Of a DNA stretch of 24,422 nt, positions 18,201 through 24,200 are shown piece after piece. The position numbers were made by a program. The DNA is taken from the IMG/VR virus record IMGVR_UViG_2529292920_000019, positions 1 to 24,422 of that record. One strand, 5' to 3'. Numbering within the stretch: position 1 is the stretch's first letter; each line of letters starts with the position of its first letter. The DNA is from a virus (taxonomy: Duplodnaviria; Heunggongvirae; Uroviricota; Caudoviricetes).

Positions 18201-21200
18201 ACTGCGGCACGAATGTCAGTGTGTTTCATCGTTTTATTGCAATCCTCAGTTGTTGTTTCAGCACGGATGCCAGTTCTTTAGGCAGGCGTTCACGCCGGAT
18301 ACGGTCAACATTCTCATCAAATGCCTGTTTCAGTGGGGCCGCCATCGGGATTTTCACCACATCAATGGGGTAACGGTTTTTCCCGGCCACACGCTGCATG
18401 ACATGCCAGCGACCATTTTTTAATCGCTGAATAAATGCCCGCTGATACCGATGCTGACCGGCTTTAAGTATGCTGTTCGGGCGACGCCCCGGCATCCTGA
18501 TCCCCAGCTTAATCACAGGGAGATCACCGCGGTTAACGATAATTCTGGCATTCGGATTTCTGACCGTCGCCCGTTTCAGTCTGGACCGTTCCTTAACCAG
18601 TTTCCGGCGAACCTTGGTCTCCCGGGCAACCTGTGATGAAGACTGATTAATCGCCGTTGTGGCCACGCGGTTAATGGCCATTGCTGAAGCCGCCGGAATG
18701 GCGTTTTTACGAACCCGGCTCAGATTGTCAATCGCCTGATCAAGCCCTTTTATCGTCATAATTCACCCTGCGTTTATCGTCGCCGGTTAACTGCCGGTGG
18801 TTGACCACGGTTGAGCCAGAGATAACAGCTGCCCCCGTCATCCGGAGAAACACGATCCACCCAGAATATCTCACCATTAATGGTCAGCGTGTCACCACGC
18901 CGCACGGCACGAACCGTATCCGTCCGCACAAATAATGACGGGCTGCTTCCTTCAATACGGACCCCGCTACCGGCAAACCCCAGCGACTCCGGATCGTCAA
19001 AAACCCCCTGAACTTCGCTGCCACACTGTGCCCCCGAGGTGAACTGCGCACAGAGCCCCATCACTTCAACAATCGTGCTGTCCACCCCGGCGAGGGCAGC
19101 ATCAAAGGCATTCTGAAAATCACGCATGCTCAGCCGTTCCGTGCTGTATCATGGCTGTCGCCAGTGGTAATGGCACCAGAACACGCATGCCCCGGTACGT
19201 CAGTTCAACGGGACGGCCTGTTTCCGGGCAATACCCCATCACATGCAGGCATTTCCGCACACGGACCGCTTTAACATCATCCGTAGCATCAGTGTTGTGC
19301 AACTGCTCACCATCGTCTGTGTGATTTTGCTCAGGCCCGCTCTCATCACCAGGCATAATGCCCTCCCGGGAAGCAGCAAGCTCCTCTTCCCACTCAGACA
19401 CACGTTGCGCAATATCCGCAGCACTCCCCGCCATATCCGCCTCGCGCCCCAGCAGGCCAGCCAGTTGACGAAGACGTTTCTGATTTTCTTCTTTTGTTGC
19501 CATATCAGCCCCCTGTGAAAAAAGACACGGGGGCATTTCGCCCCCGCTCACGGATTATTTCACCTGCACCACCACAAACTCATCCGGATCCGGCAGCACC
19601 ATCAGCGGTGCGGACTGCGTCATGGTAAATTCACGGGCCGGATCGCCCACGGTCAGCCAGTGTTTCGGGTAACGGGAAGAAGCCACCACACCTTCGGACA
19701 ACGCCTGCGCATCCTGAATGGCACCGTAACAACGGATCCCATCTGCAGCCGTATTTCCCAGGACCAGCGTGCCCTCCGGCAGATAACGTTTTTCGGTACC
19801 GTCCTCTGCCACATAAGACGTTTTCGCCACCACAATGGCCAGATCGCCGTAATACCCTTTGAAAGACACCACCGCGCCCAGGTCTTTCACTGCCGTTTCG
19901 AGTTGTGAATTTGAGCCGCGACGGGTATCCAGTTTTTCGCGGAACAGCTTAAAACCATTCAGCAGACGCCAGACAGTACCGTCCATAATGGCAATATTCA
20001 CAAGACCGCTGGCCTGATCGCAGTAGAGGTCAATATCATGCGTCGGATCAAACGTATCACGGTCCTGCTCAGACCATTTTTTACCGTCGGCCTGCTCAAT
20101 GTTATTTCCTTCAGAGCGTCCAAAATCCACCTCGACAGTATCAAACTGATCCCCTTCCATGGTGTATTTGCCATACAGCACGGCATTCACCGCCTGCATT
20201 TCTTCCACCTGGACAATGGCATGCTCTTCCTGTTTGAGGTTATCGGTGATGATACGCAGACGACGGTAGGCCGGGTCGTTCAGTTGAGCCGGATCTTCAC
20301 CGGGAAGACGCTCAACCGCCTGCTGGTAATTAAATTCGTGTTTCGGCTTGACGTAGCCCGGACGTAACACGCGGGTTTCACCACCGCGATGACGCAGCAC
20401 TTTTCCTTCAACAACCGGGGAGACATAGGCCGCCACCGGCGTTTTTCCGGTAATTTTGTCCAGCATCACCTCTTCGGTATGGAAATTCACCGTACGGCGG
20501 AAAAACAGCTCCAGAAACAGCGCACGAAATTTCACTTTTTGTTCGGTATAACCGAGTAACTGGCGGGTCGTAAACAATCCCATAAATCAGTTCCTTTCAT
20601 TCAGAAATCAGTCAGGCCACCGCGGTGGCCTGATAACGTGTTACGGCAGCGCCGCGTGACTCAGGGCACTGCCGGCAAAGGCGTTGGCCTTTTTGTGTTC
20701 ATCCACACTTTCAGGCCAGCGGATTGCCTCCGTCGCAAAGGTCCCCGACTTGTAATAGGTCAGTACCGTCTCTGTGCCTTCAAGCGGCAGTACCAGTATG
20801 CCAACTGCACTACCGGCTTTCTGTCCGTCCCAGACCACCAGTTTCCCGCTGGCTTCATCCAGCATCAGGGGCGTCAGTGCCGGTGTTGCCGAGGAAATCC
20901 CGCTGCTGCCTGTGGCGGTATGAGCCGGATCATTACCGGCAAAAATACGTACTTCCGCACGCTGTTCAGTGATGTTTTTCGTTACCATATTGTAAAAACC
21001 TCCTGTTGATGGTCAGCACTGGCTTCATGGCATGGCCATGAGCATTTTCACGTCCGCATCACCGTCTGCTGACGTCTGTGGCACGCCACCCTGTACCGCA
21101 GCCGGTGAATGGTTCGCCATGATGCGTTCAAACAGGGCGGTTGTGGATGCAGAGACCGGTTCTGCCTTACCTGATCCCGCAGCCAGCACAGCCCGGGCGC

Positions 21201-24200
21201 TCTCCACAGTCATTCCCGGGCAGGCAGCCAGCTGTTCAGCCTGCGCCTCAGCCCCTTTTGCCTCATCCAGTGCCATGATCTGATCACGGAGTGAGGGTCC
21301 GGCATCCGCCTGCGGTGAAGCAGCCAGGATCGGGCGGGCTTTTTCCACCGTCATCTCCGGCATCGCCGCCAGCGTTGCCGCCAGTTGTTCACGACCGTTC
21401 GCTTCTTCACACGCCATAATGCGATCGGCTTCACTCTGCGTGGATGCCACCGGCTGCTGCGGTGCCGCCGCGGCCAGAATCGCCCGGGCCTGTTCAACGC
21501 TCATGCCCTGTTGTCCTGCCAGCATCGTGGCAAGCTGTTCACGTCCTTTCGCTTCCTGGCATGTCAGGATCCCCATCACTCGCTGGTTCTCCTGCGCGGC
21601 GGCTTCCGTTGCAGTTAATTGCGGCATAGTGCCTCCTCTGACATTACTGTTCAGCGCCGTGGCCATCACACTGATGGCATCCGACGCATTGACTAATTCA
21701 TCCGCCAGCCCGGCATCAATGCCGGACTGACCTTCAAAAACGGCGGCCTCTGTTCCCGTGACGGCATCAACAGACAGACCGGTAAACATGGCCACTTTTT
21801 CGGCAAACATCCGGCGCGCCGCATCAATGCGCTGCTGCATGTCCTGGCGAACCTCTGCCGGTAAGGCTTCAAACTGATTGCCATCCACCTTGTGCGCCCC
21901 TGAGTAAATCAGCGTGATATCCACACCGGCCTGCGCCAGATGACCGACATAGCTGACATGGCTCATCATCACGCCAATGGAGCCGATACGGGATGTCTGG
22001 GTAACCAGCCGTCGGGAGCAGGCCGACGCCAGCAGCATGGCTGCAGAACAGGCCGTGTCATTGCACAGTACCCAGACCGGCTTCTGCTGACGGAGGCGGT
22101 AAATCATGTCAGCGCAGTCAAACGCGCCGGCGGCCTGCCCGCCCGGACTGTCAATGTCCAGCAGTACGCCCCGCACCTGGCTATCCGCCATTGCCTGCTG
22201 AAGACAGGCGACAATGCCGTCATAGCCTGTCATTCCGGAAAATGGCCGCATCCCCCCCAGCCGGTGCACCAGCGTGCCGGTCACCGGCAGTACAGCAATA
22301 CCGTTCACCACCCGGTAAACACGGGCCGGTCGTTTACCTCCGGCCATGTACTCGTCCGTTTCAGCCAGCATTCCGGGAGCATCAAGCTGTACCTGCTGCT
22401 GTGGTACCGAAAGACTTGCTGCCCCCATCTCGCGCCCGAGCGCGCAAAAGAAAACCCGCGCATAGGCGGGCTCCAGAAGCAGCGGTTCATTGAATGCTGC
22501 GGCAATAATGTGTGAAAGATTACGTCTCACGGGGTGTTGTCTCCTCTTCCGGCCTGCGACTCTCCGCTATCTGCTGCTGATACGCCTGCGCTATCCACAC
22601 CGGACGTGAGAGTCCGGCTTTTTGCCGCTCTGCAGATTCCCTGACCTGCTGGCGGAAAATGTCCTGATAATCCTCGCCCATCAGCGCCAGCTCTTTCTCA
22701 TACGTGCTCAGTCCGGCCTCAATGCGCATCACCGATTCCTGAACCTCCTTGAGCCCGTCAATGGCCATTCTTCCGGCACCAATCCACTCTGCCCGTGACC
22801 AGGCTGATCGCGCCTGATAAAAATCAAAACGCGCCCGTGGCGGACGGATAATCCCCCGAAGAAGTGCCTCTTCCAGCCAGCAGGAAAACATCTGCGTGGC
22901 CAGCCGGGCCGCAATAAATTTTCGCCGCCCCATAAAATAGCGCCACGACTCATTGGCAGAGGCCCTGGCACTTGAATAACTGACCTTCGAGTAATCACGG
23001 GACAACTGTTCGTAGGAAACGCCAAGACCGGCGGCGATATACCGCAGCAGCGCCTGTTCAAGCGCCGAAAATCCATTGTCTGAATCCTGCGCAGTCTGTA
23101 GTTTCAGATCATCCCCGGGGAAAAGGTGCGGAATTTTGACACCACCCAGCGTCACGTTATTCGTGTCATACCAGCTGGAGAACTTCTCCAGAATATTAAT
23201 AAGCGGATTATCCTTCTGCCCCTGCGGCGCACCGGCGATATATTCAAAGGCCTTTTCGGTATCAAGGTCACTTTCAATCGTCGCTGCATACATGGCTTTC
23301 ACAATGGCCGACTGAAGCTGTGTTGCCTGCAGGGAATCGAGCATCTTCAGCCGTTCCATGACGCTGTAAAACTGGTTGGCCCCACGGGTCTGCCCGTCCT
23401 CCACCGGCTCGAAAATATGCAGCATGGCCGGACGCCCGGTGGGAAGTTCACGCGGGATCCGTTCCCATCGTCCACTCCCGGAGAACGGAAAATCATCCTC
23501 ACAGATATGGTACGCAACGGCACGGCCATATCGATCGACCTCCACCCCGGCCCGCAGAAAACGGTTCCCCATACCGTGTCCTGGCGTGTCCACCCGTTTC
23601 GGACTCACGGCTTTAAAACGCGTACGGAATAACTGCGTGGTTTCCGTATCCCAGACCGGCTGCACAAAGATTTCGCCGTTAAACGCATGAACGCCCACAC
23701 CTTCACGGATAAATTCCGTAAACGTGCGTTTCCCTTCCACGTCGATCTCGCCAGACATCCCTTCGGCGTATTCCGACCAGGCCGCCTCCACCTCATCGAC
23801 AAAACTTTTTGCTGCAGTCTCCCGCATCCCCAGCCAGCGCCAGTTCGGACGGTAGCTGATCAGAAACATATGCCCGACAATATGATCCTTATGCAGGGCC
23901 ACCGCATTGGCCGCTATTCCGTTATTGCGCACCAGATCATCTGCACGGGCATTGCCCAGACGCAACGCGGGCAACAGGGCCGCATCGGCACTCTGCGCCG
24001 GTGGCAACCACTCCGCCATTTGCCCGCCAAATCCTGCACCGCCCCCGTTGTAGCTGAGGCTCTCACGAAGCGGAACGCCGTTCACATCAATCAGGACAGG
24101 CGTTCGTTTCATAACCTCACTCCCAGCGGACGACGGCGACGCCGGGTTGTCCCCAGTACCGACTCCGCATCATTGATCGCCCGGTTAAGCTCATCCAGAG

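Follow-up and report, generated by a model that had tools for sequence, protein, structure and literature searches.

We analysed a 24,422-nucleotide (nt) stretch of viral DNA (Caudoviricetes; IMG/VR record IMGVR_UViG_2529292920_000019, positions 1 to 24,422), hereafter called the window, with a focus on its gene for a prohead protease/scaffold polyprotein. This gene is a lambda C/Nu3 head-assembly gene of the phage 21 type, and its C-terminal scaffold part contains three consecutive units of about 46 amino acids (aa) each. Taken as a whole, the results are probably best explained by a phage 21-type C/Nu3 gene with a selected three-domain array, by which the scaffold would make multivalent contacts. 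The repeat unit is a conserved and probably folded domain, and forms a signature of Nu3-type scaffolds across many phages.

The triplication itself is already known, as it was annotated in 1993 in the form of the phage 21 gene 6 Tri boxes (on the basis of the GenBank feature table). Having been in the public phage 21 record for three decades, it carries little weight as a discovery. The value of the analysis lies in a clear negative answer to the reading of a decaying prophage, and its additions are modest: the predicted three-helix fold, a family-wide census, a series of one to four copies, a trade-off with linker length and the purifying selection acting on the array.

Three diverged units in the scaffold part

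Comparison of the protein with itself gives diagonals at offsets of 50, 47 and 97 aa, and the module profile finds three matches (Table 1) with the consensus E.xR(I/V)xxIL..xEAKGRE.LA..LA...GM(T/S)VE.A..(I/L)LAAAP. Sixteen columns are invariant across the three units, and the in-register 35-aa cores share 54-60% identity in protein and 58-66% in DNA. Local-alignment scores between units range from 83 to 101 (against 24-25 +/- 5 for shuffled units; z = 12-17), while none of the 2000 composition-matched shuffles scores above 49. Self-comparison, shuffles and profile positions thus bear out the triplicated C-terminal module placed at 21166-21594 by the original prediction, which was also right in taking the gene for a lambda C/Nu3 homologue with the units in its scaffold part.

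The units are less alike in their codons. Third-codon-position identity between them is 34-43%, and although 19-21 residues are identical between units, only 8-9 of these use identical codons, the differences being concentrated at third positions. Tandem Repeats Finder reports no tandem array in the DNA of 20000..22500, in line with an old and diverged repeat; it can be seen in the protein only.

Phage 21 and the Tri boxes

At the nucleotide level the gene is 98.5% identical to phage 21 gene 5/6 and to isolated or induced E. coli phages (ev017, 4A7, 1W, 3W, PhiR57_1 and others). The GenBank entry M81255.1 ('Bacteriophage 21 head gene operon') describes gene 5 together with a nested gene 6 that has an internal ribosome-binding site (RBS) and ATG. 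Within gene 6 it lists three repeat_region features, named 'Tri1 box', 'Tri box' and 'Tri3 box', each with the remark 'function unknown; putative'. Mapped to the window, these boxes span 21166..21560 with near-identical sequence and coincide with the three units. In the complete phage 21 genome (OL657228) the product names are 'capsid protease/scaffolding protein' and 'scaffolding protein'. In the literature accessible to us, a search found neither the original phage 21 head-gene paper nor a discussion of the Tri boxes.

The phage 21 protein shares about 98% aa identity with that of the window, as well as its length of 501 aa, the internal RBS and ATG, three units at equal positions and the gene context (portal, shp decoration protein and major capsid protein). 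The differences amount to a few substitutions (A374 in the window against V; FERIM in the window tail against FEHFM), and the window copy belongs to a chromosomal E. coli prophage in which the tape-measure gene is frameshifted.

Copy number in relatives

Translated homologues contain one unit each in lambda, phi80, N15, HK225 and Aeromonas phage PhAER-1, and three in phage 21 and Salmonella Gifsy-1. In lambda, gpC (439 aa against 501 aa in the window; NC_001416 4418..5737) has the same layout, an S49 protease with a nested in-frame scaffold whose internal start follows a conserved Gly-Gly motif. Its one unit (AENSRIMGILNCEEAHGREEQARVLAETPGMTVKTARRILAAAPQS) is orthologous to unit 1 and is followed by a similar TALDRLM helix and a tail. 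A further difference is found ahead of the unit, where lambda has about 58 low-complexity residues after the internal start and the window protein about 11-17.

For a census of the family, the three-unit profile was scored against 1.84 billion representative proteins (E <= 0.001). It matches at least 534 proteins (cluster representatives), mostly S49 proteases and almost all with a single matched stretch. A recount on retrieved full-length proteins gives one copy in 58 out of 63 and three copies in the remaining 5. Since lambda, like most members of the family, carries a single unit, the three-unit array is a derived expansion relative to the rest of the family. The single lambda unit and the reading as an expansion rather than an ancestral state, both put forward beforehand, are therefore upheld; three copies in lambda, which would have spoken for an ancestral array, are not found.

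The array is common in E. coli: the three-copy scaffold segment is present in 1870 of the 5426 complete genomes (about a third), with up to five copies per genome. Other copy numbers occur as well. An initial homologue search with the 200-aa scaffold, which gave mostly contig-end fragments, was of use for such variants; the census relies on the profile search. One two-copy form (P0020) results from an in-register fusion of units 1 and 2 (…MSVEQARPILAASPQ…), and a second one (P0021) is likewise found in E. coli/Salmonella relatives. Three proteins (P0009, P0011 and P0016) are without half of unit 2 and thus have 2.5 copies; deletions in unit 2 occur in some draft assemblies. For the P0011 form, no uninterrupted match is present among the 12 best matches listed in complete genomes, each of these being in two pieces that span the full array, and we treat this variant as rare or confined to draft assemblies. 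In the four-copy form (P0027) units 2-4 are most alike among themselves. In one complete genome its gene is an uninterrupted open reading frame (ORF) of 538 aa, adjoined by portal and capsid genes that are intact too, and it is full-length in 104 of the 5426 complete E. coli genomes. Finally, a distant stand-alone protein of 198 aa (P0139) has two units.

Many database entries are 'partial' and end inside or beside the scaffold region. The probable cause is that assemblies from short reads are interrupted at head modules, of which a single genome can have up to 5 copies in its various prophages. One candidate (P0145) was rejected as a database artefact: this 258-aa sequence is the C-terminus of Gifsy-1 gpC, altered throughout by A>V, T>I/M, P>L/F and H>Y replacements as though C-to-T converted (bisulfite-like) reads had been translated, yet it scores as a three-unit match.

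Origin and selection

The gpC homologue of Salmonella Gifsy-1 (STM2605, 498 aa) has three units that pair with those of the window and a similarly short linker, even though its scaffold part is only 53.5% identical. In a neighbour-joining tree of the units (47 columns, low resolution) the first unit of every multi-copy protein groups with the single units of lambda, N15 and PhAER-1, whereas units 2 and 3 of the window pair with units 2 and 3 of Gifsy-1, respectively. By these pairings, unit 1 is the original unit, orthologous to that of lambda, and the extra units were added downstream before phage 21 and Gifsy-1 split.

Synonymous sites have reached saturation in the comparison of the window with Gifsy-1 (proportion of differing sites pS 0.71, against pN 0.21 for nonsynonymous sites). 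The ratio of nonsynonymous to synonymous rates (dN/dS) is 0.11 for the Tri region, 0.145 for the protease part and 0.50 for the C-terminal tail, meaning that the tail evolves faster than the units. With third positions near saturation between the units as well, the dN/dS of 0.11 points to a duplication that is old and under purifying selection just as strongly as the protease domain, and not to prophage decay.

Predicted fold

AlphaFold2 was run on the 200-aa scaffold with 22 homologues, and on a single unit with a 61-row alignment of diverse units. The full scaffold model contains three helical blocks with a predicted local distance difference test score (pLDDT) of 74-80, separated by low-confidence linkers (predicted template modelling score, pTM, 0.27), which suggests that the units are independent domains on a string. 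The single-unit model (unit 1) has a pLDDT of 91.4 and a pTM of 0.69, with helices at residues 2-10, 19-26 and 33-42; each unit is thus predicted to form a three-helix mini-bundle. In the scaffold model the helices of unit 2 lie at aa 367-372, 381-388 and 395-404, and those of unit 3 at aa 414-419, 428-435 and 442-452. The tail is modelled with a helix at aa 461-474 and low pLDDT elsewhere.

In BFVD the same predicted fold is found in further S49 proteases of phages, where it forms the C-terminal end (template modelling score 0.86-0.91). A Foldseek comparison of the 200-aa model with the PDB yields nothing (E >= 2.9), as can be expected because the model is flexible and multi-domain with a pTM of 0.27. 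The scaffold part has no sequence relative in the PDB, and no Pfam or NCBIfam family covers the module. A specific similarity to protein A, UBA or RuvA domain III-like bundles, beyond the generic three-helix topology, was not found, and a weak HHH match (E = 0.09) was dismissed.

Possible role of the array

Lambda Nu3 is described as a transient scaffold that is removed by the C protease, which also cleaves itself during prohead maturation (PMC3224144; references in PMC8508860). It self-associates, contacts E and C in two-hybrid tests, and contacts B as judged by genetics (PMC3224144). In the scaffolds of P22 and phi29 a small helical element is thought to dock on the N-arm of the capsid protein (PMC11922011). 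These elements resemble the module in being helical parts of a transient scaffold and offer an analogy for how it might act; they differ in being two-helix hairpins that occur once per chain, in scaffolds that are not nested in a protease gene. PDB sequence and structure comparisons gave no sequence or fold match between the module and these helix-turn-helix elements.

In the mechanism that we propose, the C-terminal 200 residues would consist of three three-helix domains on short flexible linkers, followed by a helix-containing tail. The array stems from an ancient tandem duplication that preceded the divergence of phage 21 and Gifsy-1, with all copies kept by purifying selection, and copy number still shifts occasionally via in-register recombination (to 2, 2.5 or 4 copies). 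The module may serve as a folded protein-protein contact unit of Nu3-type scaffolds that would attach to the major capsid protein (at its inner face or N-arm), to further scaffold molecules, or to both. As protease and scaffold share the domain, it would also bring the protease into the core of the scaffold during assembly. With three domains per chain, scaffold and protease would both be trivalent, and the long disordered spacer of lambda would be traded for extra binding units while the T=7 head design remains unchanged. An effect of copy number on valency or length is plausible, and phage-assembly laboratories gain from it a concrete and cheap hypothesis on scaffold valency.

A more general form of this idea makes the ~45-aa three-helix module the basic unit by which every Nu3-type scaffold binds the capsid (or is crosslinked), with copy number setting valency and stoichiometry. 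We regard it as a tentative possibility, to be doubted sooner than relied upon. If true, the otherwise similar T=7 head modules that carry 1, 2, 2.5, 3 or 4 copies, and lose disordered linker in compensation, would offer a natural experiment on the way in which valency and spacer length control procapsid nucleation and the loading of protease, and the Tri boxes, annotated 'function unknown' since 1993, would receive their first function.

Several points weigh against the proposed contact role. We infer both this role and the valency from conservation, the predicted fold and the analogy with other scaffolds. Moreover, lambda Nu3 is reportedly called intrinsically disordered in the title of one cited paper, which is uneasy to combine with a folded module; the two could be reconciled, as the N-terminal half of Nu3 is long and disordered. 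Capsid binding could also reside in the fast-evolving tail instead of the module, by analogy with several other scaffolds. Lastly, the tape-measure gene is frameshifted, so the scaffold gene may be out of use in the prophage of the window.

Linker length and alternative explanations

In one-copy proteins (n = 71) a median of 56 residues separates the protease domain from the first unit, against 17-20 in every multi-copy protein. All that follows the protease adds up to about 146, 206 and 243 aa in proteins with 1, 3 and 4 copies, respectively. The extra units therefore accompany the loss of a long low-complexity spacer, without simply replacing its length.

This pattern leads to the alternative that survives best, even if we consider it unlikely: the extra units would mostly be spacer or filler that replaces the lambda-type linker and sets the reach or volume of the core, while one unit or the tail makes the specific contacts. 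The linker that is always short in multi-copy proteins fits such a view, the natural variants with 2, 2.5 and 4 units suggest that changes in number are tolerated, and the head genes are otherwise alike (with a capsid protein of 342 aa in each). Nonetheless, a spacer needs no sequence conservation, yet all units keep EAKGRE...LA...M(T/S)VE.A..(I/L)LAA and the dN/dS of the array is as low as that of the protease; nor is the length after the protease conserved, as the three values given above show.

The original prediction also allowed for repeat-driven drift in a decaying prophage, by which the array would be functionless repeat instability. The window does carry a lesion. Its tape-measure (lambda H-like) gene (13630..16208, minus strand) is split into overlapping ORFs at 13630..15195 and 15006..16208, and in comparison with an intact 2580-nt homologue from E. 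coli O157:H7 PV15-279 (96.6% identical) one A is missing from an A5 run around 15159. Unless this 1-nt deletion is a sequencing error, the prophage is probably tail-defective. A 100% identical scaffold segment is also present in an O157:H7 prophage near the hya operon (NZ_AP018488.1 1158571-1199173, gene at locus 19098..20603) that is clearly degraded: it has insertion sequence (IS) insertions, frameshifted terminase, portal and J genes and a truncated major capsid gene, and carries the tccP2 effector. The unit 2 deletion variants of some draft assemblies point in the same direction. The tape-measure deletion has nothing to do with the repeat, however, and drift is contradicted by the equal array in the viable, plaque-forming phage 21 and in many other isolated or induced phages (95-98.5% identity), by the unit-by-unit sharing of the array with Salmonella Gifsy-1, and by an intact frame with saturated synonymous sites and a conserved protein under purifying selection. 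We therefore hold this explanation to be very improbable.

Hardly credible at all is a role of the repeats as nucleic acid (protein-binding sites or RNA structure in the late operon), for which the two pattern-only 'CII binding sites' annotated inside phage 21 gene 6 could be brought forward, given the modest DNA identity of the units, their third-position differences and mostly different codons for identical residues, the blank Tandem Repeats Finder result, and a conservation across distant phages that lies in the protein and not in the DNA.

The gene, its neighbours and the nested scaffold

The coordinates of all features are provided in Table 1. The ORF of the protease/scaffold gene measures 1506 nt with its reading frame intact, and the protein matches PHROG 53 (phrog_53, head maturation protease) from end to end (E = 1e-227). 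Pfam PF01343 covers aa 146-293 (E = 1.5e-34; 119.6 bits against a cut-off of 24.9). The region of aa 77-290 can be aligned to B. subtilis SppA (3rst_A), where Ser162 is found opposite the Ser of the SppA 'MAASGG' motif; lying in the motif ACSAA, Ser162 is the candidate nucleophile. The portal, protease/scaffold, decoration and capsid genes are followed by the tail genes. This order equals the B-C/Nu3-D-E arrangement of lambda and is also seen in phage 21, Gifsy-1, phi80 and N15. With its S49 domain, operon position, nested start signals, C-terminal module and three Tri boxes, the gene belongs to the phage 21 gp5/gp6 subtype of the lambda C/Nu3 type, which the three boxes set apart from the lambda subtype.

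Table 1 Features of the protease/scaffold gene and adjoining head genes in the window
Feature	Position	Strand	Description and basis
Portal gene	22520..24112	-	Upstream neighbour of the protease/scaffold gene
Prohead protease/scaffold polyprotein gene (lambda C / phage 21 gene 5 homologue)	21025..22530	-	501 aa, GTG start, stop 21025..21027; ORF list
S49 (SppA-like) serine peptidase domain, aa 77-293	21652..22302	-	Pfam PF01343 and B. subtilis SppA alignment
Shine-Dalgarno AGAGGAGG of the nested scaffold gene	21632..21639	-	Sequence read; annotated RBS in both phage 21 records
Nested in-frame scaffold gene (phage 21 gene 6 / lambda Nu3 homologue), 200 aa	21025..21627	-	ATG 21627..21625 = Met302
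Unit 1, aa 313-358: QENQRVMGILTCQEAKGREQLATMLAGQQGMSVEQARAILAAAAPQ	21457..21594	-	Profile 89 bits; Tri1 box of M81255 = 21457..21560
Unit 2, aa 363-408: STQSEADRIMACEEANGREQLAATLAAMPEMTVEKARPILAASPQA	21307..21444	-	Profile 90 bits; Tri box of M81255 = 21310..21420
Unit 3, aa 410-456: AGPSLRDQIMALDEAKGAEAQAEQLAACPGMTVESARAVLAAGSGKA	21163..21303	-	Profile 87 bits; Tri3 box of M81255 = 21166..21279
C-terminal tail, aa 457-501	21028..21162	-	One predicted helix ASTTALFERIMANH and terminal ...VKMLMAMP; homologue alignment, model
Decoration protein gene	20641..20988	-	After the protease/scaffold gene
Major capsid protein gene, 342 aa	19555..20583	-	After the decoration gene

Reading of the sequence gives two predicted products from one frame: the 501-aa protease and a 200-aa scaffold identical to its C-terminal 200 residues. 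The internal start is intact in the window, with AGAGGAGG located 4 nt upstream of the ATG at 21627. This Shine-Dalgarno is encoded by conserved Arg-Gly-Gly codons, so that the Arg-Gly-Gly-x-Met of the protein family doubles as RBS of the nested gene. The homologous position is the coding sequence start of gene 6 / scaffolding protein in M81255 and OL657228, and the nested scaffold matches phrog_8399 (head scaffolding protein). In the tail, the helix ASTTALFERIMANH is equivalent to TALDRLM of lambda, and the end ...VKMLMAMP stands against ...DLLNTPV in lambda.

Within the scaffold gene, OL657228.1 annotates two 'CII binding site' matches on the opposite strand (pattern ttgynnnnnnttgy; locus 2409-2422 and 2643-2656). 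Their equivalents in the window, based on the pattern only, lie around 21622..21609 (at the internal start) and 21388..21375 (in unit 2).

For lambda, the RefSeq record NC_001416.1 annotates nu3 at 5132..5737 (201 aa; locus 833..1438). A start homologous to that of phage 21 gene 6 (after Gly-Gly, ...SGGRM...) would yield about 131 aa, a shorter product that we take to be the accepted lambda Nu3. The RefSeq coordinates look like an older and longer call.

The best matches to the window as a whole are found in other E. coli strains (approximately 97-98% identity over 81-83% of its length). Because these best whole-window matches lie elsewhere than in the second prophage with the identical scaffold segment, the head module is widely exchanged among prophages.

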